From contig OZ220471.1 in NCBI GenBank assembly GCA_965115835.1, positions 1,486,157-1,550,156 of the forward strand: DNA of 64,000 bases, written 5' to 3'. Numbering within the stretch: the stretch's first letter is position 1; every line of letters starts with the position of its first letter. Shown in pieces: positions 26,253-40,174 of the stretch. The position numbers and the translations under genes are program-made. Source of the DNA: Gammaproteobacteria bacterium. Lineage in GTDB: Bacteria > Pseudomonadota > Gammaproteobacteria > Steroidobacterales > Foliamicaceae. The notes beneath the pieces are model-generated. The model worked only from the letters and a program-made list of their open reading frames with translations, did no database searches and was not told the DNA's origin.

Positions 26253-27818
26253 TCAGCGTCCCTTTCTGGCCATTCTTCTGAGCCATTCCGACTCATCAAT
26301 CGCCACGCGACTCAGCGTTGTTCCAAAAGTCTGGGCGATCCTCTGTGCGTACTCGGCCTTGAGTTCACCCCGCCACTTGTATTGATTTTCACAAGTATCC
26401 GTAAACTCGAAGTCGCCATCGGATTCCCGCTTTGCTGCGATTACGGCACCGCTGCCCGTCGATGGTTTGAATTTGCGGAGAACCCAACCATCTGGATCAC
26501 GTTCGATGCCCAATCGCTCGAATTTGTCATCAATTCTGGCGACAATCTGGTCCATTCCCTTCTTGGGTTCAACCAGCGGCAGGAAAAAGAACATTGTCTC
26601 TCCTTTCAATCTCACGCAATCACATCGAGGTCTCATGCAGATCAAATGCTGTTTGCCGCCAGCCTCGGACACCGTAACGACGGTACCCAGCCACAATGTC
26701 GGTGGCGGCGCACCATACACCGTTCGGAAACTCATGATCCAAGCCAACCGCTTGTCAAGGTCGCCGGCATTCTGACCGGAGAAGCCGGCGGAGAGACCTT
26801 CAAAGTTTTTATTTTTCAATGCACTCGCTGCAAAACCTTGGTTCGCCAACTCAATGGTCTTCTCCAGATCGAGATCCTGACCGCCGAACACGAAACTCTC
26901 GGTTCCTTGCCCCTTGCGTCGTATCCAATTCTCGACAGCCTTGGCGCTTGCGGGAGACGCTTCCGCAACAGCGTTGTCCATCAGGCCTCGAAGCTCTTCG
27001 GCCACATGGTTCACGATCTGCCGTTCCGCATCGTGCGGGTCGGATAGACATGCCCTGTGAGCAAGAAACGCCGGATCCAACTCCGCACTAAACCGGTCCA
27101 GTACCTTGTGCGCGCCTTCTCGCACTGCGGCCAACGAGGTGATTGCGATGCCGGGAAGCAGCCCCGCAGTCATTGAGGCGAAATCATCGACTAGCCGGCC
27201 GGGAAGATCCTCCTCCGCGACACTCCGATCCTTCAGTGATGCCGCCAGATTCACACCGGACTTTGCATAAAGGACAACCCGACCATGCCGGTATGAAATT
27301 TCCATTCCAGTCCCATTCCGCTTTGGCTCAAGTCCGCCATCTTTCAGCGCGTCCAAAACTTTTGCGCCGATATCCTCCAGCCGTGCCTCACCAGTGTAAA
27401 TCGCCACGAGACGGAGGGAATTACGATCTGCTTCTCCAGTCAGCAAATCCCAAATCAACTTCAGCGCGTACTGAGGCTTGCCATCCTTCAAAAGCCAGTC
27501 GAGGATCACGATGTCGGCCTGCCTCATCGTTTCCATTGCTGAATCCGTGGGACCGACCACACCGCAGATGACGCCAAGCGCTGAAAACGCATCCATGACG
27601 GAACCTGCGTTCAGGGTGTGTATCAAACTGCGATCAACTGCTCCCTCATTATCCCGGCTTGATGCCCGCATGCGCCGGCCCGGCGCCACCAACCCCGACT
27701 CTGGTCGATCACCCCCGACCAATCGCATGCGCGCCTCGTCGTCTACCACTACCGCCGTATGGAGAAAACGCTGCGCGAAGGCAACGCTGCCATATCTCGA
27801 TTCGCCCGCCAACGCCAT
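26253..27818 (-). CDS. Receiver (CheY-like) domain protein with an uncharacterised ~330-aa C-terminal domain
   Basis: ATG 27818 preceded by AGGGGAAAG. CheY-like landmarks in order: VVVDDE, ADIVILDW (putative phospho-Asp), LVAIYTGE, VVLYAKSG. I recognise no motif in the C-terminal part (CMRPRCDCVRL...FFFLPLVEP...). Confidence 0.6.
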   Translation of the reverse strand: MALAGESRYGSVAFAQRFLHTAVVVDDEARMRLVGGDRPESGLVAPGRRMRASSRDNEGAVDRSLIHTLNAGSVMDAFSALGVICGVVGPTDSAMETMRQADIVILDWLLKDGKPQYALKLIWDLLTGEADRNSLRLVAIYTGEARLEDIGAKVLDALKDGGLEPKRNGTGMEISYRHGRVVLYAKSGVNLAASLKDRSVAEEDLPGRLVDDFASMTAGLLPGIAITSLAAVREGAHKVLDRFSAELDPAFLAHRACLSDPHDAERQIVNHVAEELRGLMDNAVAEASPASAKAVENWIRRKGQGTESFVFGGQDLDLEKTIELANQGFAASALKNKNFEGLSAGFSGQNAGDLDKRLAWIMSFRTVYGAPPPTLWLGTVVTVSEAGGKQHLICMRPRCDCVRLKGETMFFFLPLVEPKKGMDQIVARIDDKFERLGIERDPDGWVLRKFKPSTGSGAVIAAKRESDGDFEFTDTCENQYKWRGELKAEYAQRIAQTFGTTLSRVAIDESEWLRRMARKGR

Positions 27819-27827
27819 CACTTTCCC

Positions 27828-30785
27828 CTATAGTTCTTTCACTGGCGCCACGCCGAATGTCGCGCCACCGTCGCCTTCGAGCAACTGAAGATCGAAGCCG
27901 ACCCGGCGCAGAGTTTCCCGTCCGATGTACAACCCCATCCCTCGGCCACCGGGCTTTCTGCTGAAGCCGAACTCGAAAATCGCCTCCCGGTCGCGGACAT
28001 CGACCCCCGGTCCGCTATCGGCGACGAGCAATGCGCCGCCGCGCTCATCAAGCTCGATAGTTCGTTCCAACTGGGGGTTCTGTTGCGAAAGCCAAAAGAT
28101 CGCGTTGTCCACCAAATTCACAAAGACGGGATAGAAGCTCGAGGGGAAGCCGATGATCCTGGCGTCGTCGAAGGCTCTTGTCGCCTTGAAGGACACGTCA
28201 TGGCGCGCCAAACGCGCGCGGAACAGCTCCTCCAGAAAGTCCCGAATCTCGGAACCACGGATTTCCACCGCCTTCCTGTAGAGTCGCCGCTGCAACGGCG
28301 TAAACAGCGTCAGATATCCGTCGAGGTGATCGAAGCTTGCTCGAATACTGTTGTACAGTTCGCCCAATCCCTCGTTCACATCGGCCCAGGCTTTCAGTTT
28401 TCGCAAGCCAGTGCGAATCGACCGTATCGTGCCGGAGAATTCATGGTTGATGATCTCGATAGCCATTCCCAACTGTGCCAACTGCGCATCAGCCTCGGCT
28501 TCCTCCTCCAGCAAAAGATTGCGTTGCTCGATCGCCATCAATTGTTCGGCTGTCGAGCTCTCACCTGTCACGTCCACCGCCTGAAGCTGCTCCAACACCG
28601 AGCGTAACAATGCTCCCTGTTTTTCGGCGACTTTCAGTACCCTGGCCTCCAACGCGCTTCTGGTTTCGACGAGACACTCGTCGGTCATTCCCGCCAGATC
28701 GTTCCGTTGAAATTCGCTTAGCACCTCCCGCAGTTCCGACTCGGCAATCTTGAGGGACCGTCCCGCTACCTCTCGCGCTTTCGAGGCGACCTTGTCCGCT
28801 TCCGCCCTCACTGCCCGACCTGATTCGCCCGTCGTCTTTCGCGCCTCGCGCACAAGGCCATCCAGTGCCGCTTCTGCCCTGACGCGACGGTCTAGCGACA
28901 ACCTTGCCTTCCGAACCTCCTCACCAATCATGTCTTCCATAAGCTCGCGAGACGGCCGGAACACATTCTCCTGAAGCAAGGCGAACTCCGCGTTGTAGAC
29001 GCTCCAGTCGCGAAGCGTGGCTTTGCTGAGTCCGATTCGTGGACGCGCTATACGGTAACGCGCCACCAGACTCCTGATATCTGCTTGCGCCTGACGTTCA
29101 AGAACAAGAATTTTTTGCGCCGCCAACTGGCTGTCCGCCATGCTGCATACCGCTTGCAGCTCCTTCTCGACACGTCCCGCCAAAGCCAAGGCTTCATTCT
29201 GAGGTTCGTTGTTCTTGAGCTTATCGAAAAAACAGTCCAAACTCTCCTTGAATATTTTCTTCCTCTCCGCGACCCGTTTTTGTCGTTGTTTCCTGGCCTC
29301 ATCCTCTCTCGAAAGCTCGGCCTTTCGCTGATCGAATTTGTCAGCGTGCATCCCTTTGACCCGGAAAAAGTCCGCTGCCATCTGAAAAAAGAAGTTCTGG
29401 AGAATCGAACGGAACTGACGGTACGCCTTGTTCTGTTGGAATCCCTCTCGTCCTGCTTTTTCCAACAGATCCCCATTATTGTCCGCGTCGATCCACACGG
29501 CCCCAAACATTTTCCTGTGTGAGAAATAGTAGTAGGAAGCGCTCTTTGTTCGCCTGAATTCGATGTCCAGCCAATCGTAGTCGGTGTTGCCATAAGGCAG
29601 TACGCGAACCCCGTTCCGGTATATGTAGAGTCCTCCCAACCGCTCGGTCTTGCGTGCCAATGTCGCATACTCTTCGTCAGGAATCGTCGAGTATTTCTCC
29701 TCGCCCTCGAAAGCGGCGAAGTCGATTGAGAACGGACCACAGCGTGTGGGCACGCCACGCCCGCCGCCCCATGGGATAACGTGATCGGCTGTCGTCTCAC
29801 CATAGATTGAAACCTCTCCCTTGAACTGACCGAATTCGTCGAAGTCACCGCGCACCCGGTGATCCGCATCCCCGAACTCTTCCGGGGTGAAGAACTCATC
29901 CTCGGCAATCAGCTCTTTGGTCAACTCGTCCGTCTTGTGATCGCGAAACGCAGTGTGGATCACAGGCTGCGAGTCTGGTGTCATGGTGTTACTGAATCCA
30001 AGCAACGCTTTCATCAGGGGCGGTGCTTTTTTCAACGCAGCCGCCTTGCTCGCTGCGGGGTCTCCGTCGATATCATCCGCCAGTAACGGCGATGCGGGCT
30101 TGATGATGAAGTGTGTTCCGCTGCTGCTCGCACCAGCGAGTGACGGCTTTTCAAGGTAGGAGTCGATGTCTTGCGGATCAATATCGAATTGATCCAGTTC
30201 TGCCAGAAGCTTCTTCAACAATCGCCTCTCGACATCGCGGCCGACAATTTTGGCGCTCGCACGAAATTCTTCCACCATGTCAGCTACATCCTGTGCCGAA
30301 GGCAAAGAGCCCGCTGTAAATGACCGCAGGGGTATTTCGACGTCTTCCAGGTCGATGCCGGGCCATTCGAATACGCCCCAGTTCAGGAACGCTGCGGTGA
30401 GGTCGGAGGCTCCGTCATCAGCCTTCGGGCGAGTGAGAACCAGAAGCTGCGGGCCGATAGTCGCAATCGCAAGCCTTCCGATCCCCTTCTCTCCCAGCAT
30501 CGGCCGCGGTTCCTTATCTGGATATTGCGGTGGCCGTTGATTCGGATCGAACTTGCTTTCCGTGCCGATCGTCAGCCATCGCGTCACGAAGTCGTCCCGG
30601 CTCATCCCGACGCCATCGTCTCTGAGTACAAACAGGCCATCCGAGCGGTAATAGTCGATCTCGACGCGATCAGCATAGGCGTCGTGCGCATTCTTGAACA
30701 GTTCGCTGATCGCGGTCGGAATGCCGGCAATCTGTTGCCGACCGAGCATGTCTAGTGTGCGAGCGCGCGTCTTGAAGGTTGCCAT
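27828..30785 (-). CDS. Double-GHKL protein: N-terminal MORC/Hsp90-like ATPase + coiled coil + C-terminal histidine-kinase core (DHp + CA)
   Basis: N-terminal Bergerat motifs ISELFKNAHDA, RDDGVGM, GEKGIGRLA. A ~350-aa helical Glu/Arg/Ala-rich middle. H-box-like AIEIINHEFSGTIRSIR, then a second ATPase (FVNLVDNAIFW, VADSGPGV, GGRGMGLYI). The ATG at 30785 shares 1 nt with the dcm stop. Confidence 0.75.
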   Translation of the reverse strand: MATFKTRARTLDMLGRQQIAGIPTAISELFKNAHDAYADRVEIDYYRSDGLFVLRDDGVGMSRDDFVTRWLTIGTESKFDPNQRPPQYPDKEPRPMLGEKGIGRLAIATIGPQLLVLTRPKADDGASDLTAAFLNWGVFEWPGIDLEDVEIPLRSFTAGSLPSAQDVADMVEEFRASAKIVGRDVERRLLKKLLAELDQFDIDPQDIDSYLEKPSLAGASSSGTHFIIKPASPLLADDIDGDPAASKAAALKKAPPLMKALLGFSNTMTPDSQPVIHTAFRDHKTDELTKELIAEDEFFTPEEFGDADHRVRGDFDEFGQFKGEVSIYGETTADHVIPWGGGRGVPTRCGPFSIDFAAFEGEEKYSTIPDEEYATLARKTERLGGLYIYRNGVRVLPYGNTDYDWLDIEFRRTKSASYYYFSHRKMFGAVWIDADNNGDLLEKAGREGFQQNKAYRQFRSILQNFFFQMAADFFRVKGMHADKFDQRKAELSREDEARKQRQKRVAERKKIFKESLDCFFDKLKNNEPQNEALALAGRVEKELQAVCSMADSQLAAQKILVLERQAQADIRSLVARYRIARPRIGLSKATLRDWSVYNAEFALLQENVFRPSRELMEDMIGEEVRKARLSLDRRVRAEAALDGLVREARKTTGESGRAVRAEADKVASKAREVAGRSLKIAESELREVLSEFQRNDLAGMTDECLVETRSALEARVLKVAEKQGALLRSVLEQLQAVDVTGESSTAEQLMAIEQRNLLLEEEAEADAQLAQLGMAIEIINHEFSGTIRSIRTGLRKLKAWADVNEGLGELYNSIRASFDHLDGYLTLFTPLQRRLYRKAVEIRGSEIRDFLEELFRARLARHDVSFKATRAFDDARIIGFPSSFYPVFVNLVDNAIFWLSQQNPQLERTIELDERGGALLVADSGPGVDVRDREAIFEFGFSRKPGGRGMGLYIGRETLRRVGFDLQLLEGDGGATFGVAPVKEL

Positions 30786-31867
30786 CAGGATAGTTTTCCC
30801 ACATCCCTCAGATGTTCGATGAATTGATGACCGATGAGTTTTGCCAAACGAACCGGTACCGCATTCCCGATTTGTCTTGCCATCGACGCCATGCTTCCCT
30901 CAAAAACGAAGTCTTCGGGAAATGTTTGCAAGCAAGCCGCCTCCCGGATACTGATGGCCCTATCCTGCTCCGGATGGCCGAAGCGTCCGTTCGAGTAGCT
31001 CGTGCATCGCGTGGTAAGCCCTGATGCGGGCGCGTCCCACGACATCCGGCCATAGACATCGCTATAGCCCGAAAACCCCTTGTGGCAATCGAGCATCAGG
31101 CGTTGCGGCCAATCCCGATTGCCACCACCTTCAGGCGTTGCCTCTATACGCTCCAGATTGCGCGCGGAAAGATGCGCTGCCCTGTGGTTGGGCACTTCCT
31201 GATGCTCTTCCCCCGCCCGAATCGGCGGAAGATGAGCGATCCAGTCCCCGACCGTGGAGTATTCCTCGTTGGCCGTTCCTGGCCCGTGCGTCTCATCAGG
31301 CAAGCGAACCACACCATGAAGGCTCCCTACCAGGACGAGCCGACGGCGGCTTTGAGGTATCCCGTATTTGGCAAGCAATACAGGTCGGTAGTCCACCTTG
31401 TAACCCGCTTCGTCCAGTCGCCGCAGGAAGTCGCCGAAAGGCTGGCTGTCTGCGGACAACTGCTGTAGTCCCGGGACATTCTCCACAAACACAAGATCGG
31501 GCCGACAACCTTCTACCAAACGAGCAAAATGGACAAGCAGAGGGACACGATCATCCTGGCTGGGCTCCGGCCGTGTCGTATTCTGTTTGGTGAAGGGCTG
31601 ACACGGCGCACAGCCGCTGAAAAGCACCGGATTTGATCGCTCGGTGTCTACCCGGGATCGGACCATCTCGACATTCACCTTGCGGATATCCGCAAACTCG
31701 AAATGCGCGTCGGGGAAGTTGGCCTCGAAGCTTGCCCGAGCGCCCATATCGTAGTCCAGCGCGAACATGATCTTCATCCCGGCGGCCCGGAAACCGCAAC
31801 TCGCGCCGCCACATCCGGCAAAGAAGTCGTATACCTCCACAGTCGCCAAGTCGCTACGGTGGGTCAT
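30785..31867 (-). CDS. dcm: DNA (cytosine-5)-methyltransferase
   Basis: Motif I DFFAGCGGAS, motif IV GCAPCQPF, motif VI FVENVPG, QSRRRL, C-terminal GNAVPV. The ATG at 31867 overlaps the vsr stop (ATGA). Confidence 0.9.
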   Translation of the reverse strand: MTHRSDLATVEVYDFFAGCGGASCGFRAAGMKIMFALDYDMGARASFEANFPDAHFEFADIRKVNVEMVRSRVDTERSNPVLFSGCAPCQPFTKQNTTRPEPSQDDRVPLLVHFARLVEGCRPDLVFVENVPGLQQLSADSQPFGDFLRRLDEAGYKVDYRPVLLAKYGIPQSRRRLVLVGSLHGVVRLPDETHGPGTANEEYSTVGDWIAHLPPIRAGEEHQEVPNHRAAHLSARNLERIEATPEGGGNRDWPQRLMLDCHKGFSGYSDVYGRMSWDAPASGLTTRCTSYSNGRFGHPEQDRAISIREAACLQTFPEDFVFEGSMASMARQIGNAVPVRLAKLIGHQFIEHLRDVGKLS

Positions 31868-32442
31868 GTTTGCGCACCGGTATGAGGCATGAAGGCACAT
31901 CCGGTCCGTGACCCCGCGTCCGACCTTTCCGGCACCGACAGGGAACGTCCCTGCGAGTCGGATACCGACATCGAGACTTGGTTTTTGGCGGTTGTGGCCA
32001 ACGGGATGTTCTTCGGCTCATCAGTAGCCCTTCTGCGGGTGACCGATGCGGCCAGCTTGTGCGCCACAAGCGTCTGGTCCTTGGTTTCGCACTGCCAGAT
32101 GACGAGGGTCCGCCAGCCATGTGCCCTCAGGGCCGCTTCCTGGCGGGCGTCCCGGGCGACATTGGCAGCGAACTTCTCCGTCCAGAAGGCGATTCGGGAC
32201 TTGGGGGTGGATGCGTACCGGCAGCCTTCATGCCGATGCCAGAAGCAACCGTGCACGAACACAGCCAGCCGATGTTGCGGGAACACCAGATCCGGTCTAC
32301 CCGGAAGATCGGTGCGATGCAGGCGGAAACGCAGGCCCATCCTGTGGGCTATTCGACGAACCGCCAGTTCAGGTGTGGTATTGCGGCTGCGTATGCCCGC
32401 CATCAGTTCGCTTCGCCGCCTGCTGTCCACGATGTCGGTCAT
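31864..32442 (-). CDS. vsr: Very short patch repair endonuclease
   Basis: RRSELMAGIRSRNTTPEL, LPGRPDLVFPQHRLAVFVHGCFWHRHEGC, FWTEKF, VIWQCE. About 40 extra C-terminal residues. The ATG at 32442 overlaps the hsdS stop (ATGA). Confidence 0.9.
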   Translation of the reverse strand: MTDIVDSRRRSELMAGIRSRNTTPELAVRRIAHRMGLRFRLHRTDLPGRPDLVFPQHRLAVFVHGCFWHRHEGCRYASTPKSRIAFWTEKFAANVARDARQEAALRAHGWRTLVIWQCETKDQTLVAHKLAASVTRRRATDEPKNIPLATTAKNQVSMSVSDSQGRSLSVPERSDAGSRTGCAFMPHTGAQT

Positions 32443-33584
32443 GCCGTGTCCTCCAGGAGGCGGAACATGAGGGAGGCATTCAGCGTTGCAGCAATACGAC
32501 AGGCAAGCTCCATACGCTTGACTGTGGCTTGCGCTGCCTTGGCAAGTGCTGCGAATCGAGCCTGTTCATCAGGTGGAGGATGCGGCACTGGCAATAACAT
32601 CAGCGCTTTCATGTCGGTTCGCGGCATTCGGGAACCGGTCACAGACGCCATGACATGTTCAACAGTTTCCTTTTGCCGAAGCAATTGCGCGACGAAGTCG
32701 CGATTGATTCCCTCTCGGGGGAGAAGTGGAATCAACTCGGTAGAGCATCTGCCAGCGAATTCGGGAGTAGCGACTTTGTTCAGATAGGGCCGAAGCTTCG
32801 CATAGAGAACATGACGCTTGTCGAATCGAAATGTTGCGCTTCTTTGATTGCCTGTGCGTGAATCGTTATCGAGGTTGATCGCACCTGTGTGCGGCTCGAC
32901 ATTTTCGACGCCCACAAACGGAAGTCGCGATAAAGCCGGGTTGTTCGGATCCAGTCCTTGACGATCCACCACGCAAATTTCGCGGAGTGCACAAACTGGC
33001 CACCCCATCGGGTTTGCGGCAGGATCGCCGAACATCTTCACAAACAGCGCGGGCATGAATTCCCGCATCAACTCCCGCGCCTGCGCCCGCAGCCGTTCGA
33101 TCTTCGCCGCTCGGTTCAGGATGCCGGCAATCCGCCGCTGCTCGTCGAGCGAAGGAAGGGGGACCGGCAGCAACATCAGCGCTTTCATGTCGGTTCGCGG
33201 CATTCGAGAACCGGTCACAGACGCCATGACATACTCAACGGTCTGTTTTCGCCGAAGCAGATGGGCAACGAACTCGCGATCCACACCATCCCGAGGAAGA
33301 AGTGGAACCAGTTCGGTCGAGCACTTGCCCGCAAAATCAGGGGTTACGACCTTGTTCAGATACGGTCGGAGCTTTGAATAGAGAATATGGCGCTTGTCAA
33401 ACTGGAAAGTTGTGCTCCTTTGACTCCCGACACGTGAGCCGTTGACGAAATTAAGGGCACCGTTTTGGGACTCGACATTCTCGACGCCCACGTAGCGAAG
33501 CCCCGCCGCGGCAGAGTCGTCCGGATCAAGACCTTGGCGATCCATCTCACAGAGATCACCCAGCTTTACGACCGGGAAGCTCAT
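32439..33584 (-). CDS. hsdS: Type I restriction-modification specificity subunit with two near-duplicate target-recognition domains
   Basis: Two repeats of the pattern VGVENVE...FDKRH.LY.KLRPYLNKV.TP.FAG.CSTEL.PLLPR...MASVTGSRMPRTDMKALMLLPVP, separated by the conserved helical spacer LDEQRRIAGIL. Confidence 0.9.
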   Translation of the reverse strand: MSFPVVKLGDLCEMDRQGLDPDDSAAAGLRYVGVENVESQNGALNFVNGSRVGSQRSTTFQFDKRHILYSKLRPYLNKVVTPDFAGKCSTELVPLLPRDGVDREFVAHLLRRKQTVEYVMASVTGSRMPRTDMKALMLLPVPLPSLDEQRRIAGILNRAAKIERLRAQARELMREFMPALFVKMFGDPAANPMGWPVCALREICVVDRQGLDPNNPALSRLPFVGVENVEPHTGAINLDNDSRTGNQRSATFRFDKRHVLYAKLRPYLNKVATPEFAGRCSTELIPLLPREGINRDFVAQLLRQKETVEHVMASVTGSRMPRTDMKALMLLPVPHPPPDEQARFAALAKAAQATVKRMELACRIAATLNASLMFRLLEDTA

Positions 33585-33771
33585 TCCCCCACCGCCTCCA
33601 TTACGGCCTCGGCGAGGTCGTCGATCTCGGCGAGGATTTGCGTCTCGATGCCTCGCAGGTCCTTGAGGATGTCCAGCGGTTCGCGGCGCTCTACCTTCGC
33701 GCGGCTCAATGGCCGGTGGCGGTTGGCGCTGAGGTTGAAGTCGGCGGCGCGGATGGCGTCGGCCCCGGCGA
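33581..33771 (-). pseudogene. Orphan 3' fragment of hsdM (last ~63 codons), still ATGA-coupled to hsdS
   Basis: Encodes ADAIRAADFNLSANRHRPLSRAKVERREPLDILKDLRGIETQILAEIDDLAEAV..., nearly identical to the C-terminus of the full hsdM at 35752-37416. The DNA repeat 33603-33771 vs 35807-35975 has 5 mismatches in 169 bp by my alignment. Confidence 0.8.
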
Positions 33772-33852
33772 CCTCATCAAGCAGCAGAAATCGTTCATGC
33801 ACGGCCACTCTGTCTTGGCGCCTGTCCCTTCGGGCGCTTATGACAGGCATCC

Positions 33853-34386
33853 TCACGCCGCTGTCGCCGCCGCATGTTCCCAAAGGCCGAGATCGCGCAG
33901 CAGGGCAACCGCTTTTTCGATGCGCTCGTCCGTCGCCTTGAGCGGCTTGCGCGCCTTCGTTTCCTCGACCGGGTCGATCTCTCCCTTGCCGTAGTAATCC
34001 CACTCATCACGCAGGAAAACCATGGTTGCAGCCAACTCCAGAACGATATCCGACGCCCCCTTCAGCTTGTCCAGAAAAGCACTGGCCTGGCAAGCCGAAA
34101 GCGCGCCAAGAGGTGGCGGCGGCTCCTCTTTCGACTTGAAAATTGCATAGGGCACTCCGTGGCGTCCTGGTTTTTCTTCCATGGTGATTCGTTTTTCCGC
34201 CAGCGCATCGGTTAATCCGTCAACCAGATCGAAGCAATACGGCCCATAGTGGTGATAGATGAATCGCAGGCCGAAATTTGCGCCACAGCGGTCCAAGAGA
34301 TAGGCCTGCTTCTGCAGCCGGGTTCGACCGATCAGTTCGCCGCCGTTCAGCGCGACCAAGCCAGTTACGATTTCTTCCACATTCAT
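33853..34386 (-). CDS. Panacea/DUF4065 (SocA-like antitoxin domain)-like protein, 177 aa
   Basis: GRTRLQKQAYLLD...FIYHHYGPYCFDLVDGL resembles the KLQKLLY...YGP core of DUF4065 as I remember it. The ATG at 34386 overlaps the HD gene stop (ATGA). Family assignment is tentative. Confidence 0.45.
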   Translation of the reverse strand: MNVEEIVTGLVALNGGELIGRTRLQKQAYLLDRCGANFGLRFIYHHYGPYCFDLVDGLTDALAEKRITMEEKPGRHGVPYAIFKSKEEPPPPLGALSACQASAFLDKLKGASDIVLELAATMVFLRDEWDYYGKGEIDPVEETKARKPLKATDERIEKAVALLRDLGLWEHAAATAA

Positions 34387-35738
34387 GTTGCCACCTCCTT
34401 CAGGATTTTTTGCAGCTCCTTGGTGCGAGCCGCATCGGGCGCGTAGACGCGCTGGATGCGTTTGCCATGCCGAAGCGTTTGCACGACATCGGATTCACCA
34501 ACGATATCGGTTGGCTCGCCTGCATCGTCTCGCGTCTTCACCAGAACTTTTTTCAGAGCCGATGTGTCGTCGAAGTTATAGGCCTTGTATGACGCAAACG
34601 GCGCGTCGTCGAAAATAACCTCGTCCTTCCATCCCCAAGGCTTCTCATTCAGACACCGCCTGAACCGGAGGAACAGATTGCCATTCCACTCATCACAGAC
34701 TCCGATATCGACGCACTTGTAGAGTACGCGATCCCGCAACCGTCTCGCCAATCCCGAAATCCGCTTGTCCGAAAAATCGGAATAAATCGACAAGGCGGCC
34801 CAGACCGACGCATCGTCGAGAGCAAGATAGGAACCGAGCGTTGGCGTGTCGGATTTCAGATAGCACAGAACCGGTTCTCGGCTCGCCACTTCCCTCCCTA
34901 CTGTATCCGACGCAATGACACCCATGAGGGTCTCCAGCATCTTTTCGGCGGCCCTTGTAGTCTTGTGCATATAAACCATCCGGTAAAGACGCGACCGGGC
35001 TTCCAGATACTCCTCGGCTACCTGAAAGCCCTTTGGACCGAGATAGAAGCATGGCGCCTTGATCGGATCCGTATTTCCGATGGTTACCTTCCCGACCTCA
35101 AGGCAATCAAGCAACCAGTCAAGATCGATATGTCCGAACTGCACACCGGTCATCAGTCGGTCCCGCTGCATGTAGTCGAGCCGGTCGGCGTCAAACTGGC
35201 TCGACACGATAGCGCTGTAAATGTCCTTCTGGCTGTCTTCGGTTAGAAGTGCGCCGATCTGGTTTGGCAAGTCCTCGTCCGCCTCTCGGAGCACTTGGTT
35301 GACTCTGGTGTCGCTCCTTACGATCTCGGTACTCCATTCTTCGTGTCGTCGCTGCTGCCGACCCATAATCGTGGCGGACTCAAACACATGACTGAAGGGT
35401 CCGTGCCCGATATCGTGCAGTAGGGCCGCCAAAAGCGCGACACGCTCGCGTTCCGGATCGTGAGCATGACCCAACCGCCGTGCGATGACGTCAGCCAACC
35501 GCCGCGCCATGTGATACACGCCAACGCTGTGGGCAAACCGGCTATGGGTCGCACCGGGAAAAACGAGATCGGAGAAGCCCAACTGACGGATGCGGCGCAG
35601 TCGCTGAAACTCGGGCGCATTCATCAGGCTCCAGGCGATCCGGTCTGTTTTGTTCCGATGAACGTTGGCACTGCCCCCGAACACAATCAGTCCATGAATC
35701 GGGTCGCGTATCCGCTGCGTTTGTTTGCTGTTCCCCAT
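34383..35738 (-). CDS. SAMHD1-like HD-domain dNTP triphosphohydrolase
   Basis: IRDPIHGLI, EFQRLRRIRQLG, THSRFAHSVGVYH, ALLHDIGHGPFSH, FDADRLDYMQRD, YMHKT. ATG 35738, 13 nt after the hsdM stop. Confidence 0.8.
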   Translation of the reverse strand: MGNSKQTQRIRDPIHGLIVFGGSANVHRNKTDRIAWSLMNAPEFQRLRRIRQLGFSDLVFPGATHSRFAHSVGVYHMARRLADVIARRLGHAHDPERERVALLAALLHDIGHGPFSHVFESATIMGRQQRRHEEWSTEIVRSDTRVNQVLREADEDLPNQIGALLTEDSQKDIYSAIVSSQFDADRLDYMQRDRLMTGVQFGHIDLDWLLDCLEVGKVTIGNTDPIKAPCFYLGPKGFQVAEEYLEARSRLYRMVYMHKTTRAAEKMLETLMGVIASDTVGREVASREPVLCYLKSDTPTLGSYLALDDASVWAALSIYSDFSDKRISGLARRLRDRVLYKCVDIGVCDEWNGNLFLRFRRCLNEKPWGWKDEVIFDDAPFASYKAYNFDDTSALKKVLVKTRDDAGEPTDIVGESDVVQTLRHGKRIQRVYAPDAARTKELQKILKEVAT

Positions 35739-35751
35739 CACCCCAGCCCGT

Positions 35752-37416
35752 TCAGCAGTCCGAAATGCGAGGAGCCAAGGCCGGACTGGATGAAGTCTCT
35801 TCCCGCACGGCCTCGGCGAGGGCGTCGATCTCGCCGAGGATTTGCGTCTCGATGCCTCGCAGGTCCTTGAGGATGTCCAGCGGTTCGCGGTGCTCTACCT
35901 TCGCGCGGCTCAATGGCCGGTGGCGGTTGGCGCTCAGGTTGAAGTCGGCGGCGCGGATGGCGTCGGCCTCGGCGAACCACCAGTTCGCGGTCCAGTTCTC
36001 GTTTGGATCGCGGCCTTGCCATTCCGCCCACCGTGCGTCGCGGTCACGGAACGCCTCGATCAGGCCAGGCAGGTCGTCTTCGTCAATGGGCGTGTCGTGG
36101 TTGGCGTCAAGCTTGTAGCCGTCGTTCTCGGCATGCAGGAACATCACCCGCTCCGTCGCCCCGCCCTTGCGGAACGCCAGCACCGAGGTCTTGACACCGG
36201 AATAGGGATTGAACACGCCGCCCGGCAGCGACAGCACCGCCTCCACCCGGTTGTTCTCGATCAAACGGCGGCGCAGTTCCTTGTGCGCCCCGGTGGAGCC
36301 GAACAACACGCCTTCCGGCGCCACCACGCCGCAGCGCCCGTCTTCCCGAAGGTGGTTCAGCATGTATTGCAGGAACAAAAGTTCGGTTTGCGCCGTGCGC
36401 CCAACCTTCACTTCCTCTACGATGCGGTCGCGGTCCAACCGCCCGGAGAACGGCGGATTGGCAAGAATCACGTCGAACCCGTCCGGCGGCAGGTCGAGCT
36501 CCGCCTTCGCCGCGCGGTCGAGCGAGCGGGTGAGCGCGTCGCGGCGCAGGATGCGCACCTTGTCCAGCCCGCGCAGCGTCAGGTTCATGGTGGCGAGGCG
36601 AACCATCTGCGGATCCACATCGGCGCCGTGAAAAGTCCCCTCCTGCAACTGCCGAACCGCATCACGCCCCAGCGTGTCGCCGAGGCCGCGCCGCACGGCC
36701 TTGCCGTCGGCCTCCACTTCCTCGATCCCGGCGGACGAGGAGTTCGCCAGACGGATATGGTCCCATGCGCCCACCAGGAAGCCCGCCGTGCCGGCCGCCG
36801 GGTCGTAAATCGTCTCGCCGATCCGCGGATCGACCAACCGCACCAAGGCGCGGATCACGTGGCGCGGCGTACGAAACTGGCCGAGTTCGCCCGCCTGACG
36901 AATCTGCCGCAGCACATGCTCGAACAGGTCGCCCTTGGTGTCGGCGTCTACCCGATCGAGACGCAGGTCGTTCAACTGACTGACGACCTGGGTGAGCACC
37001 GTCGGCTCGTCGATCACCAGCCGGGCGCCGTCCATGAAGTCGGTGACGCCGTTCGTCGCAAGCTCGGCATGGAACGCAAAGACCTCTTCGCGCACCCAAG
37101 CGACCAGACGCTCGCCGTTCAGCGCCTGCGCCCAGGACGACCAGCGCAAGAGTTCGCGCGGCACACTCTTCGCATCGGACGCATGGGCGTTGCGCGGGTC
37201 GCGCAGCGCCCATTGGCCCTCGTAGGCGCTGGCGTACGGAACGGCGCCAGGCTTTTGCGCCGCCCGTGCCCGGGCCGCGTCCGCCGCTTCGTGCATGTAG
37301 AAGTAGATCAGGAAACTCAACTGCTCGGCGTTCTGGGCCGGGTTCGGGTAGCCGCCTCCAAACAGATAATCGCGGATGCGGTCGATGCCGCGACGGAGCT
37401 CCGGGGTCATGGGCAT
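35752..37416 (-). CDS. hsdM: Type I restriction-modification DNA methyltransferase subunit (N6-adenine)
   Basis: GQFRTPRHV, motif I IYDPAAGTAGF, motif IV ILANPPF, LFLQYML. ATG 37416 with GGAAGGA upstream, 4 nt after the hsdR stop. Confidence 0.9.
   Translation of the reverse strand: MPMTPELRRGIDRIRDYLFGGGYPNPAQNAEQLSFLIYFYMHEAADAARARAAQKPGAVPYASAYEGQWALRDPRNAHASDAKSVPRELLRWSSWAQALNGERLVAWVREEVFAFHAELATNGVTDFMDGARLVIDEPTVLTQVVSQLNDLRLDRVDADTKGDLFEHVLRQIRQAGELGQFRTPRHVIRALVRLVDPRIGETIYDPAAGTAGFLVGAWDHIRLANSSSAGIEEVEADGKAVRRGLGDTLGRDAVRQLQEGTFHGADVDPQMVRLATMNLTLRGLDKVRILRRDALTRSLDRAAKAELDLPPDGFDVILANPPFSGRLDRDRIVEEVKVGRTAQTELLFLQYMLNHLREDGRCGVVAPEGVLFGSTGAHKELRRRLIENNRVEAVLSLPGGVFNPYSGVKTSVLAFRKGGATERVMFLHAENDGYKLDANHDTPIDEDDLPGLIEAFRDRDARWAEWQGRDPNENWTANWWFAEADAIRAADFNLSANRHRPLSRAKVEHREPLDILKDLRGIETQILGEIDALAEAVREETSSSPALAPRISDC
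35807..35975. repeat. 169-bp direct repeat (copy 2) of the hsdM 3' end; copy 1 is 33603-33771
   Basis: Aligned by eye base by base: 164 of 169 identical. The two copies bracket the HD/Panacea-like cassette. Confidence 0.85.
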
Positions 37417-37420
37417 GCGC

Positions 37421-39568
37421 TCATCCTTCCCCGGCGCGAGTGCCTTCGTCCGCGCCACTGCCAGCCCGCCGGGAGCCGAACACCGCAGCGTTGATTCCAG
37501 CAATCAGCTTGCCCAGCGATTCCTCGCCGCCGAACACGCGCCGCGCCTGATCGTAGCCCCCGAGCGTGGAGAACGGGTGTTCATCAAGGGTCCATGCGCC
37601 GATGCCGTCCATGCTCGGCGCGTCAGCCCGCACCCGGTTACCGATCAGCCCGGCCCAGCGCGCCTGTTCCGCGTTGAAATCGCCGTGCTCTTCCCGCCAC
37701 GACTCGAAACGCACACCGACCTCTGCCGCACGCGCCTCGTGCTCTGGCGTACGAACGATGCGGCCATTCTCGTCGAGCGTCAGCCACTCGCGGCTCGCCG
37801 GGTCGATATGGTCGTCCACATCCAGCGTCAGAAGCCCGCGGGGCTTGGCCGAGCCGGGGCGACGGTCGGTGTCGTGGACCGGACGGCCAGCAATATCCTC
37901 CTCTTCGTCTCCGTGAAAGTCCGTCACGCCCACAAAATCGAAGATCGTGAACCCGGTCTTGCCGATATGGTCCGCCTTGCGCGTACCGCGCCCGCGCATC
38001 TGCCGGTAGAGGATCGCGCTTTGCGTGAACCGCGCCATGACGAGGCTCACGACCTCCGGGCAGTCGAACCCGGTGTCCAGCATGTTCACGCTAACGAGAA
38101 TCTTCGGGTAGTCCTCTTCCTTGAAGCGCTTGATGATGGCGCTCGCATCGGGCGCCGGACCGCCGCCGACATCGCTCACCACGAAGTCTGCATAGCGCGT
38201 CGTTGGATGCGGCTTCCGATCCGCGTAGTGCGCGTCGAACATCTCCGCCAGAGTCTCGGCATGGCGCCGGGTCACCGCAAATACGAGGGTCTTGCCTGAC
38301 TTCGGCCAGCGGCGGACGCCGTCTCGGCCCATGAAACCCTTCTCGTGCGCATCGCGGAACTCACGCACCAGGGCGCGGTTGCGCTCCGGGATGGTGAACT
38401 TGCGCTCCAGCCCCTGCGGGTCCACCGTAATCGGGTCCGAATCGGCGAACAGCGCCTCGAACCCTTCACGCGTCTCCCGATCCATCGCGCTCCAGTCGAG
38501 TTCGTCGCGGCGAACCTCGAACCCGTCTTCGGCGGCGGTCTTCACCGTCATCGCCTTGTAGATGCGGTAGGGCACGAGATAGCCTTCCTCGATGGCCCGG
38601 GGCAGCGTGTAGCGGAAGGTGGGTTCGTCGAGCCCGAAGAAGCGCAGCGTATCGCGCACAAACCGCCCCTCTTCCGTTTTGGGAGATGTGCCAGCCTCTG
38701 CCGTGCAAGGCGTTGCCGTAAGGCCGAGCTGGATGGAATCGAAGTGCCGCAACACGCCGCTGTACTGGCCGTAGATCGAGCGGTGGCACTCGTCCGTAAT
38801 GACCAGATCGAAATAACCCGGCGAGAGGGTGCGGAACTCGGCGATCATGGTCTGGAGGGTCGCAATCGTGATGCGCTTGGCCCGGTCGAACTGCCGGCCG
38901 GGCCGCAGCACATGGCAGGGATAGTCCCGCAGATGGTCGGTGAAGGCGTCCTCGGCCTGCCGCGCCAGGGCGATCCGGTCGACCAGAAACAGCACGCGGG
39001 TGACAATCCCCGCCTCGAACAGCCGCTTGATGAAGGCTGCCGCCGTGCGGGTCTTGCCGGTTCCCGTCGCCATCTCGACCAGGAGCTTGCGCCGCCCGAG
39101 CGAGATCTCGGCGGACAGCGCCTCGACGCATTCGATCTGATAGTCGCGGTCGACGATCCTGGAGTCGATGGTGACCGCCGACAGATCGCGGCAACTCCGG
39201 CGCGCGGCGATGCGCCGCTCCAGGTCGTCCTGAGCGTAGAAGCCCGCGATCTTCCGCGCGTGGGAGTCGGTCTTGCGGTCGAGGAACCGCACTTCCTCGC
39301 CGTTCGAAAGAAACATGAACGGCACACCGAGTTGTTCGGCGTAGTGCTTGCCCTGATCCTGCGCCGCGATGGGATCGGCGCCCGCGCGCTTGGCTTCCAG
39401 CGCCGCCATGGGCCGGCCCTGCCGGTTGCAGAGCACATAGTCGGCCTGCGTCCCGTCGGGCAGCGCGTACTCGAACAGGACGCTCGAACCGTCGGTGAGG
39501 TCCCAGCCTGCATCCTTGAGCAGCGCATCAATCTTCACTCGCGCGAAGGCTTCCGTCGTGCCACTCAT
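37421..39568 (-). CDS. hsdR: Type I restriction enzyme R subunit (EcoEI-like, short form)
   Basis: N-terminal nuclease core (ADYVL...ALEAKR), helicase motifs MATGTGKT, DECH (ITDECHRS), LGLTATP, QMRGRGTR. The C-terminal region is EcoEI_R_C-like. Confidence 0.9.
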   Translation of the reverse strand: MSGTTEAFARVKIDALLKDAGWDLTDGSSVLFEYALPDGTQADYVLCNRQGRPMAALEAKRAGADPIAAQDQGKHYAEQLGVPFMFLSNGEEVRFLDRKTDSHARKIAGFYAQDDLERRIAARRSCRDLSAVTIDSRIVDRDYQIECVEALSAEISLGRRKLLVEMATGTGKTRTAAAFIKRLFEAGIVTRVLFLVDRIALARQAEDAFTDHLRDYPCHVLRPGRQFDRAKRITIATLQTMIAEFRTLSPGYFDLVITDECHRSIYGQYSGVLRHFDSIQLGLTATPCTAEAGTSPKTEEGRFVRDTLRFFGLDEPTFRYTLPRAIEEGYLVPYRIYKAMTVKTAAEDGFEVRRDELDWSAMDRETREGFEALFADSDPITVDPQGLERKFTIPERNRALVREFRDAHEKGFMGRDGVRRWPKSGKTLVFAVTRRHAETLAEMFDAHYADRKPHPTTRYADFVVSDVGGGPAPDASAIIKRFKEEDYPKILVSVNMLDTGFDCPEVVSLVMARFTQSAILYRQMRGRGTRKADHIGKTGFTIFDFVGVTDFHGDEEEDIAGRPVHDTDRRPGSAKPRGLLTLDVDDHIDPASREWLTLDENGRIVRTPEHEARAAEVGVRFESWREEHGDFNAEQARWAGLIGNRVRADAPSMDGIGAWTLDEHPFSTLGGYDQARRVFGGEESLGKLIAGINAAVFGSRRAGSGADEGTRAGEG

Positions 39569-39629: not shown

Positions 39630-39973
39630 TCATGTCGCCGTCCAAGGATCGGCGAGCTTCATGCCGATGTCCTCGAAGTCCCGAACATTACGCGCCGCCA
39701 CCTTCATGCCGCAGGACCGGGCGGCAGCCACAATCTGGCTGTCCGCCGGGGCGCGGCGCCGCGATATCCGCGTGTCGCAGCGCTATCGAAGGAAAGGATA
39801 TGATTTCCGAAGGCATCATGCAGGATGATGCGCACTTCTTCCTCCATCAACCGGTGATGCTCGGTGGCGCGCAGGCGCAGACACACCTTCGCGTCATGGT
39901 CGAGATTGCGGATAGTGTGATGCTCGCCATACCCTTGTCGACAGGCCCATTCTATCGGCTCCAGCAGTGCCAT
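39630..39973 (-). pseudogene. Degraded vapB(fitA-like RHH)-vapC(PIN) toxin-antitoxin remnant
   Basis: The RHH antitoxin core TIRNLDHDAKVCLRLRATEHHRLMEEEVRIILHDAFG runs directly into ILSFDSAA. After a frameshift comes ...DSQIVAAARSCGMKVAARNVRDFEDIGMKLADPWTAT*, a PIN VapC C-terminus. The PIN N-terminal half is missing. Confidence 0.55.
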
Positions 39974-40174
39974 CAAGAGACTGGCGCAGAGCACCCCCGA
40001 TACTGCAACGCCGGGCCTTCGCACTCCCGGAGGGCAAACCGAACCCGGCTGTTCCCGTGAGCGCGACCGGTTGGAATCGATCTCTTCGCTTTGAATCCGG
40101 GGAATCGCAATCAATGTCTCGGTGGGAAAGGCTGCGCTTTGCAACTCGTGAAGCTCCGGCTACAGTACGGCGCG

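Follow-up and report, generated by a model that had tools for sequence, protein, structure and literature searches.

Within a 64,000-nucleotide (nt) stretch of the genome of a Gammaproteobacteria bacterium (GenBank assembly GCA_965115835.1, contig OZ220471.1; this whole stretch is hereafter called the window), a type I restriction-modification (R-M) operon carries, between hsdM and hsdS, two overlapping genes that encode a predicted HD-domain phosphohydrolase of 451 amino acids (aa) and a small protein of 177 aa. Judged from sequence comparison, this HD-small pair is an autonomous, horizontally mobile, and widespread module, in which an enzyme of the SAMHD1 clade is joined to a stand-alone relative of the C-terminal domain (CTD) of the antitoxin DarG. 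An antitoxin-like role is the best-supported reading of the small protein, and we see roughly even chances that the pair is a type II toxin-antitoxin (TA)-like module that protects against phages by nucleotide depletion. A preliminary description of the locus had reported both genes and their stop/ATG overlap; we found all three on the minus strand (Table 1), together with the motifs that it had quoted, i.e., AHSVGV, HDIGHGPFSH, and DADRLDYMQRD in the HD protein and RLQKQAYLLD and YHHYGPY in the small protein.

The small protein resembles a stand-alone DarG C-terminal domain

The small protein carries no Pfam domain, even at E ≤ 10. It aligned with positions 177 to 326 of the 329 positions of the PADLOC DarG model (E = 5e-8) and matched the NCBIfam antitoxin_DarG model (E = 5e-5). 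Likewise, a profile built from 54 diverse family members and searched against Protein Data Bank (PDB) sequences recovered 7yk3_B, the CTD of M. tuberculosis DarG (E = 2.1e-5), in an alignment that pairs LQKivyLL...FeYhhYGPYSeeL of the family with IQKLMYFA...FTPGRYGPYSERV of DarG. The AlphaFold2 model of the small protein (predicted local distance difference test [pLDDT], 90.8; predicted template modeling score [pTM], 0.87) consists of an N-terminal winged helix, which holds the LQKxxY and YGPY motifs, and a helical C-terminal half. When this model was compared with the PDB by Foldseek, 7yk3_B and 7yk3_D were the sole matches at E ≤ 1e-3 (3.6e-4 and 1.0e-3, respectively), and they were aligned over the whole length with a probability of 1.0 and template modeling (TM) scores of 0.57 to 0.61, whereas PadR-type winged helices ranked far lower (TM ~0.3; E = 0.03 to 0.3). 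By both profile and predicted fold, the small protein is a stand-alone homolog of the DarT-binding CTD of DarG.

Profile homology, fold, and an [LI]QKxxY...YGPYS motif link the small protein to this domain (DarTG; PDB 7YK3; Deep et al. 2023), whose role in DarG is to bind the cognate toxin DarT and block it. Unlike DarG, the small protein corresponds to the CTD alone, without an N-terminal macrodomain: Pfam Macro gave no match, and only positions 177 to 326 of the DarG model were aligned. Its partner also differs, being an HD phosphohydrolase rather than the ADP-ribosyltransferase DarT, and the small gene sits 3' of the putative toxin gene. The small protein is mildly acidic (isoelectric point [pI], 5.4; family median, 5.8 to 5.9). 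Its family comprises at least 1,312 clusters at 90% identity; in the 50% library, 1,942 representatives were recovered at E ≤ 1e-3 and 472 at E ≤ 1e-10, with uninformative cluster names for the distant relatives. A fold search of BFVD with the small-protein model gave no Panacea-named match and only weak winged-helix proteins of archaeal viruses.

Distant stand-alone relatives were also seen on two IMG/VR phage contigs (L104, 4959-5471, 170 aa; L105, 4977-5480, 167 aa), both without a Pfam domain and without an HD gene nearby; the neighbors of the former are an HNH endonuclease gene and a DUF4406/DUF7768 gene. By analogy with the orphan DarG-like counter-defense genes of T4-like phages, these relatives could be phage-borne orphan "antitoxin" mimics.

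The enzyme belongs to the SAMHD1/EF1143 clade and retains the catalytic residues

The HD protein matched the Pfam families HD (E = 3e-14) and HD_assoc_2 (E = 6e-6). Among solved structures searched with phmmer, its best relative was EF1143 of E. faecalis (2o6i; E = 5e-44 over ~300 aligned residues), followed by 2q14 of B. thetaiotaomicron (2e-38), 2hek of A. aeolicus (1e-33), and SAMHD1 (~1e-19), while E. coli Dgt (4x9e) reached only 1e-3. As the structures of EF1143, 2q14, 2hek, and SAMHD1 define a SAMHD1-like (COG1078/YdhJ) clade distinct from a Dgt-like clade (PMC7854603), the sequence matches place the HD protein in the SAMHD1/EF1143 (COG1078, YdhJ) clade, nearer than to the Dgt clade, and the SAMHD1-like assignment of the preliminary description holds. 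Models of anti-phage dGTPases pointed the same way: the protein scored 16.7 bits against the 400-bit cut-off of NF041026, stayed below the cut-offs of NCBIfam NF041026 and NF003701, and matched the PADLOC dGTPase model (E = 1e-6) over ~95 residues only.

The metal ligands (H...HD...D), the H132-E133 dyad, and the DxDRxDY motif are all present in the HD protein. More specifically, H65, R67, H70, H108, D109, H112, H117, H132, and E133, as well as D183, D185, R186, D188, Y189, R192, and D193, are each conserved in at least 97% of 53 intact homologs (37 to 77% identity). Because the catalytic and metal-binding residues are conserved to this degree, the family appears to be under selection as an active enzyme, for which dNTP (deoxynucleoside triphosphate) triphosphohydrolase activity is the predicted reaction. 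SAMHD1, EF1143, 2q14, and 2hek have clade, fold, and catalytic residues in common with the HD protein; in contrast to it, they are not known to work with a protein partner of their own that is translationally coupled to them, and control of SAMHD1 is exerted by nucleotides, phosphorylation, and nucleic acids.

The two genes form a conserved pair across distant bacteria

We assembled 80 loci centered on the small gene, with one genome per species, and sought the HD gene in them by tblastn. An HD gene lies directly upstream on the same strand in 75 of the 80 loci, while a 76th locus (L020) retains no more of it than the last ~24 codons; DarT was not the neighbor in any of these. Counting this remnant, 76 of the 80 species genomes have the HD gene upstream, and the adjacency is not due to chance. 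The commonest junction, found in ~45 of the 80 loci, is a 4-nt overlap, and even family members at 33 to 39% identity are still paired with an HD/HD_assoc_2 gene. An enzyme-centered sample of nine loci (two from a metagenome scan with the HD protein and seven from contig look-ups) gave the reciprocal picture: in eight of the nine, a gene for a Pfam-less protein of 167 to 188 aa lies just downstream, overlapping by 4 nt at the seven loci with gene calls or measured junctions (including L091 and L093 to L097) and starting 3 nt after the HD match in L088. The co-occurrence of the two families that the preliminary description had left to be checked is thus seen from both sides. A single orphan enzyme (L092) was seen, to which we return below.

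Pairwise identities of the HD and small proteins are closely correlated (r = 0.94, 52 loci), and from this co-divergence it follows that the two genes are inherited as a unit, with no partner swapping seen. The five loci without a detectable HD gene were inspected for a swapped partner, and they show HD remnants or housekeeping neighbors and no alternative toxins. Host taxa include Alphaproteobacteria, Gammaproteobacteria, Acidobacteriota, Spirochaetia, Latescibacterota, Rhodothermales, Chloroflexota, and Myxococcota; many are metagenome-assembled genomes (MAGs), and the cultured hosts include Bradyrhizobium, Inquilinus, Roseospira, Roseospirillum, Acetobacter, and Cognatiyoonia. The pair also occurs on three IMG/VR contigs of viral or prophage origin. 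Adjacent or overlapping co-directional genes that co-occur across genomes, as found here, are the arrangement expected of type II TA systems. In B. subtilis, ywgA presumably adjoins the HD gene ywfO; our search of the literature on YwgA and YwfO returned nothing on pairing.

Kinship with Panacea lies at the superfamily level

The preliminary description had likened the small protein to the Panacea antitoxin domain (PF13274, DUF4065). Membership in that family was not borne out, as the PF13274 hidden Markov model (HMM) gave no match to the 177-aa protein at E ≤ 10, the DarG CTD being matched instead, and only 1 of 54 diverse family members gave a match, at noise level (E = 0.057). As a positive control we used a genuine Panacea protein, orf149 of Salmonella phage Emek (JQ806763), which is among the PanA proteins of Kurata et al. 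and matches PF13274 at E = 8e-25; it was located via a 62-nt overlap in JQ806763, and 30 homologs were collected for a Panacea alignment. In hhalign comparisons with this alignment, whose low diversity limits sensitivity, the diverse small-protein alignment matched only 26 columns around the LQKxxY helix (E = 0.008, probability 5%), and a second small-protein alignment reached E = 0.15. The Panacea profile did not recover DarG from PDB sequences, and no Panacea gene turned up when the 1.36 Mb of fetched loci were searched by regular expression.

The folds told a different part of the story. The AlphaFold2 model of Emek Panacea (pLDDT, 92.8) had 7yk3_B as its top and sole plausible Foldseek match in the PDB (E = 0.075, probability 0.82, TM 0.47; next match, probability 0.04), and the small-protein and Panacea models follow a common order of helix, long LQKxxY helix, beta-hairpin with GP[VY], and helix; the helix and hairpin that bear LQKxxY...YGPYS in the former bear LQKxxY...HGPV in Panacea. 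In the small-protein family, the invariant G48-P49 followed by Y50 (GPY) sits in a hairpin topologically equivalent to that of the Panacea GPV motif, to which it is similar but not identical; GPV is reported to be critical for neutralization (PMC8832971), and a 2026 paper describes DUF4065 proteins as homologous to the DarG CTD (PMC13621843). As a genuine Panacea protein also has the DarG CTD as its best fold match, the term "Panacea-like" holds only at the superfamily level; we read the small protein from profiles and models as a superfamily relative of Panacea rather than as a member of that family.

Two further statements of the preliminary description, namely that no pairing of a SAMHD1-like enzyme with a Panacea-type partner had been described and that the enzyme-first order is anomalous, do not stand. 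Dataset S1 of Kurata 2022 lists, as putative PanT cluster T34, "YdhJ" HD proteins adjoining Panacea proteins in five clostridial genomes, toxin-first, with junctions of -4, 0, -17, -17, and +23 nt (Ammonifex, Desulfofundulus, Caldicellulosiruptor). Because of these putative TA pairs, neither the pairing nor the gene order is unprecedented, and, as in the window, the small partner there is encoded directly behind a COG1078 HD protein, the two genes overlapping slightly or leaving a short gap. PanA and the small protein correspond in the LQKxxY helix, the GP[VY] hairpin, and the best PDB match of both folds. Unlike PanA, however, the small protein fails the PF13274 HMM and shows no significant hhalign match to Panacea, so that its family is out of reach of a PF13274-seeded survey, and it shows no partner swapping, the enzyme-less loci holding HD remnants or unrelated housekeeping genes. 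One such locus without an HD gene (L078, 4145-4930; Polyangiaceae MAG) has, two genes 5' of the small homolog, an open reading frame (ORF) with a weak PF13274 match (E = 0.0018, below cut-off).

The enzyme gene is lost more often than its partner

Both genes are intact in 54 of the 80 loci, and four loci are cut by a contig end. The HD gene is disrupted by large deletions, insertions, frameshifts, or premature stops in 16 loci and is absent or reduced to a stub in five, so that the enzyme is broken or missing in ~28% of assessable loci. Damage to the small gene, in contrast, was found in ~3 of the 80 loci, i.e., L047 (an in-frame fusion), L058, and L074, the latter two being counted in the other classes as well. 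Of the 21 loci in which the HD gene is disrupted or missing, 20 have an apparently intact small gene, and in L074 both genes are degraded; a further case of a truncated HD gene next to an intact partner is L100. Enzyme loss is still in excess after correction for the 2.5-fold difference in gene length (binomial P ~0.02 to 0.03). Loss of the enzyme with retention of the small gene is the pattern expected if the enzyme is costly and its partner protective, which the data suggest.

The fusion in L047 (6774-8381; Gammaproteobacteria MAG; P0151, 520 aa) joins HD residues ~1 to 414 in frame to small-protein residues ~52 to 173, thereby deleting the C-terminus of the enzyme and the winged-helix/GPY region of the partner. 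It represents either a decayed locus or a natural single-chain variant.

The pair is recurrently embedded in type I R-M operons

Intact type I R-M operons hold the pair at 16 of the 80 loci, mostly in the hsdM-hsdS gap as in the window and in a few cases after hsdS, and three more keep hsd fragments, such that 19 of 80 (about a quarter) are in type I R-M operons or their remnants. One locus (L094) reproduces the island of the window as a whole, i.e., FitA/PIN, hsdR, hsdM, HD gene, small gene, remnant, hsdS, vsr, dcm, and a 984-aa ATPase gene. Outside R-M operons the pair occurs as a lone two-gene insert between unrelated genes, sometimes adjoining VapC/PIN, HigB, or AbiEii-type ATPase genes. 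In L096 (8438-8950) it is close to dcd (dCTP deaminase/dUTPase-family) and uvrC, i.e., alongside other nucleotide-pool genes. Across loci L003 to L061, HsdR and HsdM are 70 to 83% identical between MAGs of different phyla (Alphaproteobacteria, Pseudomonadales, Bryobacterales), whereas HsdS is 26 to 55% identical; likeness of the former and divergence of the latter indicate recent lateral spread of the R-M genes with the cassette, accompanied by specificity swapping.

It is a recognized pattern that type I R-M operons take in additional defense genes, as exemplified by TgvAB of V. cholerae VPI-2 (PMC11411939) and described as "guilt by embedding" (Payne et al. 2024). Like PrrC in EcoprrI and like TgvAB, the HD-small pair is a second module inserted between hsd genes, here with presumed co-transcription. 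It differs from both in its proteins and chemistry and in its autonomy, since three quarters of its loci lie outside R-M operons; moreover, PrrC is controlled by the R-M complex, and we saw no sign of such control for the HD-small pair.

Layout of the locus in the window

The position of the pair inside an R-M operon, claimed in the preliminary description, was upheld: a conserved, coupled pair sits between hsdM and hsdS in a tightly packed, co-directional array on the minus strand, and the Pfam matches of hsdR, hsdM, and hsdS together in one operon identify the system as type I (Table 1). The HD gene starts 10 to 13 nt after the hsdM stop, an in-frame GTG (35741) lying one codon 5' of its ATG. 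The HD and small genes overlap by ATGA, and a strong Shine-Dalgarno sequence (AAGGAGGT) lies 6 nt 5' of the small-gene ATG; the overlap indicates probable translational coupling. A scan around the cassette detected no promoter-like or terminator-like site above chance, and for this reason co-transcription with the R-M genes is the simplest reading.

Table 1. Features of the HD-small locus and the surrounding island (window coordinates).
Feature	Position	Strand	Size, match, or remark
HD-domain gene, putative effector/toxin	34383-35738	minus	451 aa from ATG
Small gene, putative inhibitor/antitoxin/sensor of the HD enzyme	33853-34386	minus	177 aa
ATGA stop/start overlap of the HD and small genes	34383-34386	minus	read directly in the sequence
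hsdR, type I R-M restriction subunit, EcoEI-like	37421-39568	minus	Pfam ResIII, SWI2_SNF2, Helicase_C, HSDR_N, EcoEI_R_C
hsdM, type I R-M methyltransferase subunit	35752-37503	minus	Pfam N6_Mtase, 2e-53
hsdS, type I R-M specificity subunit, two target-recognition domains	32439-33584	minus	Pfam Methylase_S, 2.5e-13
Direct-repeat copy A, 3' end of functional hsdM	35807-35975	minus	repeat search
Direct-repeat copy B, duplicated hsdM 3' end downstream of the cassette	33603-33771	minus	repeat search
vsr	31864-32442	minus	Pfam Vsr, 8e-28; next module of the same co-directional island
dcm	30785-31900	minus	Pfam DNA_methylase, 5e-52
HATPase_c_3 + HEF_HK + HATPase_c protein gene	27828-30785	minus	985 aa; Pfam
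Response_reg_2 protein gene	26253-27821	minus	522 aa; Pfam; with the 985-aa gene, last genes of the low-GC island

The cassette is flanked by a 169-nt direct repeat (97% identical copies, 2204 nt from start to start), which is absent from the preliminary description. Copy B retains the ancestral hsdM stop overlapping the hsdS ATG, and the translation of the ORF at 33581-34003 ends in ...ADAIRAADFNLSANRHRPLSRAKVERREPLDILKDLRGIETQILAEIDDLAEAVMEAVGE, parallel to the hsdM C-terminus, while the functional hsdM now has a new 17-residue tail. The same hsdM-end remnant occurs in the same operon of two other genomes (L008 and L094), where the copies are only 79 to 81% identical, and the arrangement is therefore old; the closer identity in the window suggests that its copies were homogenized by gene conversion or re-duplicated more recently. 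If copies A and B recombined, the cassette would be excised precisely and the hsdM/hsdS ATGA junction would return to its ancestral form.

The GC content is ~57% over ~26 to 36 kb and ~66% in the flanks. Within hsdS, an internal repeat of 300 nt is 78% identical. In the downstream part of the island, the 985-aa protein begins with a MutL-like HATPase_c_3 domain, followed by HEF_HK (PF19191) and HATPase_c, and its first ~120 aa match the NCBIfam BbrUII/HgiDII restriction-enzyme model (1.4e-18); the Response_reg_2 domain of its 522-aa partner is PF19192. In L094 the same genes come after dcm as well. The genes at 26253-30785 resemble a restriction or conflict module of two-component style that is linked to Dcm/Vsr. 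Just 5' of hsdR, an ORF at 39704-40144 (minus strand) carries a FitA-like ribbon-helix-helix (RHH) antitoxin domain (4e-11), and at the equivalent site of L094 there is a FitA-RHH and PIN (VapBC-type) pair whose stop overlaps the hsdR start; from these two observations, the island probably starts with a classical TA pair.

Proposed function and alternative explanations

In the mechanism that we propose, the SAMHD1-clade HD enzyme would drain the dNTP pool if left unrestrained. The small protein, made by translational coupling right after the enzyme, would bind it and keep it inactive in the fashion of a type II TA system. Upon phage infection, the small protein would be lost, titrated, or conformationally triggered, and the released dNTPase would starve phage DNA replication; in the window, expression would come from the R-M operon, and the cassette would form a second defensive line behind restriction. 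Physical binding, inhibition, dNTP substrate, toxicity, trigger, and phage phenotype are all predicted features of this scheme. As for how inhibition might work, the title of Deep et al. 2023 (cited in PMC13621843) has it that the DarG CTD neutralizes DarT by mimicking single-stranded DNA (ssDNA), and SAMHD1-type enzymes bind single-stranded nucleic acid at an allosteric/tetramer interface (PMC7854603); taken together, these reports raise the speculative idea that the small protein might keep the active tetramer from assembling by mimicking nucleic acid. A more ambitious proposal, which we hold tentatively and think somewhat doubtful as a whole, is that the pair is the founding example of a large unannotated family in which a stand-alone DarG-CTD protein serves as dedicated inhibitor and trigger of a SAMHD1-clade dNTPase, i.e., a protein-gated nucleotide-depletion immunity distinct from Dgt-type dGTPases and Clover, possibly acting by blocking tetramerization.

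Several observations weigh against a toxin-antitoxin role. The 468-aa HD homolog of L092 (6001-7407; 64% identity) has no small gene within 6 kb downstream, a region with few called genes, and its existence implies that the HD enzyme is not always lethal alone. Many HD-small pairs lie among plain housekeeping genes, and in some bacteria enzymes of the EF1143 type serve ordinary dNTP-pool metabolism. The asymmetry of decay is taken here as no more than suggestive because the loci were ascertained through the small gene, and its significance is marginal once gene length is corrected. Apart from DarG, neither protein matches a PADLOC defense model above noise. Finally, with the winged-helix N-terminus of its model and weak PadR-like fold matches, the small protein could be only a regulator.

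Part of this evidence would fit a housekeeping dNTP-pool enzyme, as proposed for EF1143/YwfO-type proteins, with the small protein as an allosteric or stabilizing subunit and R-M embedding as incidental hitch-hiking: about 60 of the 80 loci are outside R-M operons, often between metabolic genes, one pair (L096) adjoins dcd and uvrC, the nearest solved relative, EF1143, is a cellular dNTPase, and one JGI record labels a family member "uncharacterized protein YwgA." We nonetheless consider this unlikely, given that pairs 55 to 70% identical occur across seven of the host taxa named above, from Alphaproteobacteria to Chloroflexota, at differing genomic positions; that the enzyme is broken or missing in so many assessable loci; that R-M embedding and TA gene neighbors recur; and that the only significant relative of the small protein is an antitoxin domain. 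Alternatively, dNTPs might not be the target of the enzyme; it would then act on a different nucleotide or on nucleic acid, and the module would not work through dNTP depletion. Although the HD superfamily is catalytically versatile, substrate specificity is unreadable from sequence, and the dGTPase equivalog scores are far below their cut-offs, every metal-binding and catalytic residue of the SAMHD1/EF1143 triphosphohydrolase clade is conserved and homology to EF1143 spans 300 residues, which makes this quite improbable.

Other explanations concern the small protein. As a winged-helix transcription factor, it might only autoregulate the operon and make no contact with the enzyme; its N-terminal half is indeed a winged helix, PadR-family proteins appear among the weak Foldseek matches, and many antitoxins double as repressors. 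Against this, TM scores are far lower for PadR than for the DarG CTD, the protein is mildly acidic, and the closeness of the HD gene to hsdM, together with the lack of a promoter-like site in the window scan, leaves no separate promoter on which it could act; for Panacea itself, autoregulation was judged improbable (Ernits et al. 2023, PMC10440598). We therefore judge pure autoregulation very unlikely. The small protein might instead be a positive sensor or activator that switches the enzyme on in response to a phage cue, a role in keeping with the sensory function of Panacea domains favored in the same study (Ernits et al. 2023, PMC10440598) and with the partnerless enzyme of L092, which argues against constitutive toxicity. 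An activator would, however, be useless without its enzyme, whereas retention of the small gene after enzyme loss is the pattern of a protective partner, and the closest characterized homolog, the DarG CTD, is an inhibitor; we thus give activation a low probability and retain inhibition of the enzyme by an antitoxin-like partner as the preferred reading.

Relation to known systems and significance

The anti-phage dGTPase associated with Tal et al. 2022 reportedly provides defense by nucleotide depletion. In Clover, the dGTPase CloA shows toxicity when its partner CloB, which produces an inhibitory nucleotide, is missing (PMC12265719). Both the dGTPase and CloA are HD dNTPase effectors that act by nucleotide depletion, the role proposed here for the HD protein, and the Clover dNTPase, toxic on its own, is kept in check by a partner gene, analogous to the restraint that the small protein may exert. 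In contrast to those Dgt-like (COG0232) enzymes, the HD protein is SAMHD1-like (COG1078) and below the cut-offs of dGTPase models; similarly, the Clover partner is a nucleotidyltransferase, while the partner here is a non-enzymatic, DarG-CTD-like protein. It is thus already established that a dNTPase can be restrained by a partner gene (Clover) and that a putative pair of COG1078 HD protein and Panacea-type protein has been listed (Kurata 2022). What appears to be new is a partner family that is invisible to PF13274 and matches only DarG in PADLOC v2, along with the size of this family, its strict fidelity to one enzyme clade, its closer kinship with the DarG CTD, and its recurrent embedding in type I R-M operons.

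Nucleotide depletion is an antiviral strategy common to humans (SAMHD1) and bacteria, and the bacterial dNTPases with a shown anti-phage role that we met in this survey (the dGTPase of Tal 2022 and Clover CloA) are Dgt-like. If the proposed function is correct, SAMHD1-clade enzymes would also serve bacterial immunity, would be checked by a protein inhibitor related to the DarG/Panacea antitoxin fold, and would ride in R-M operons as part of a layered defense; should the inhibitor act by nucleic-acid mimicry, it would be a bacterial counterpart of the protein-level control of SAMHD1. The DarG-CTD/Panacea superfamily gains about a thousand or more unannotated proteins, and the HD-small pair offers a clean two-gene system in which to ask how this fold neutralizes, or senses for, unrelated toxins.

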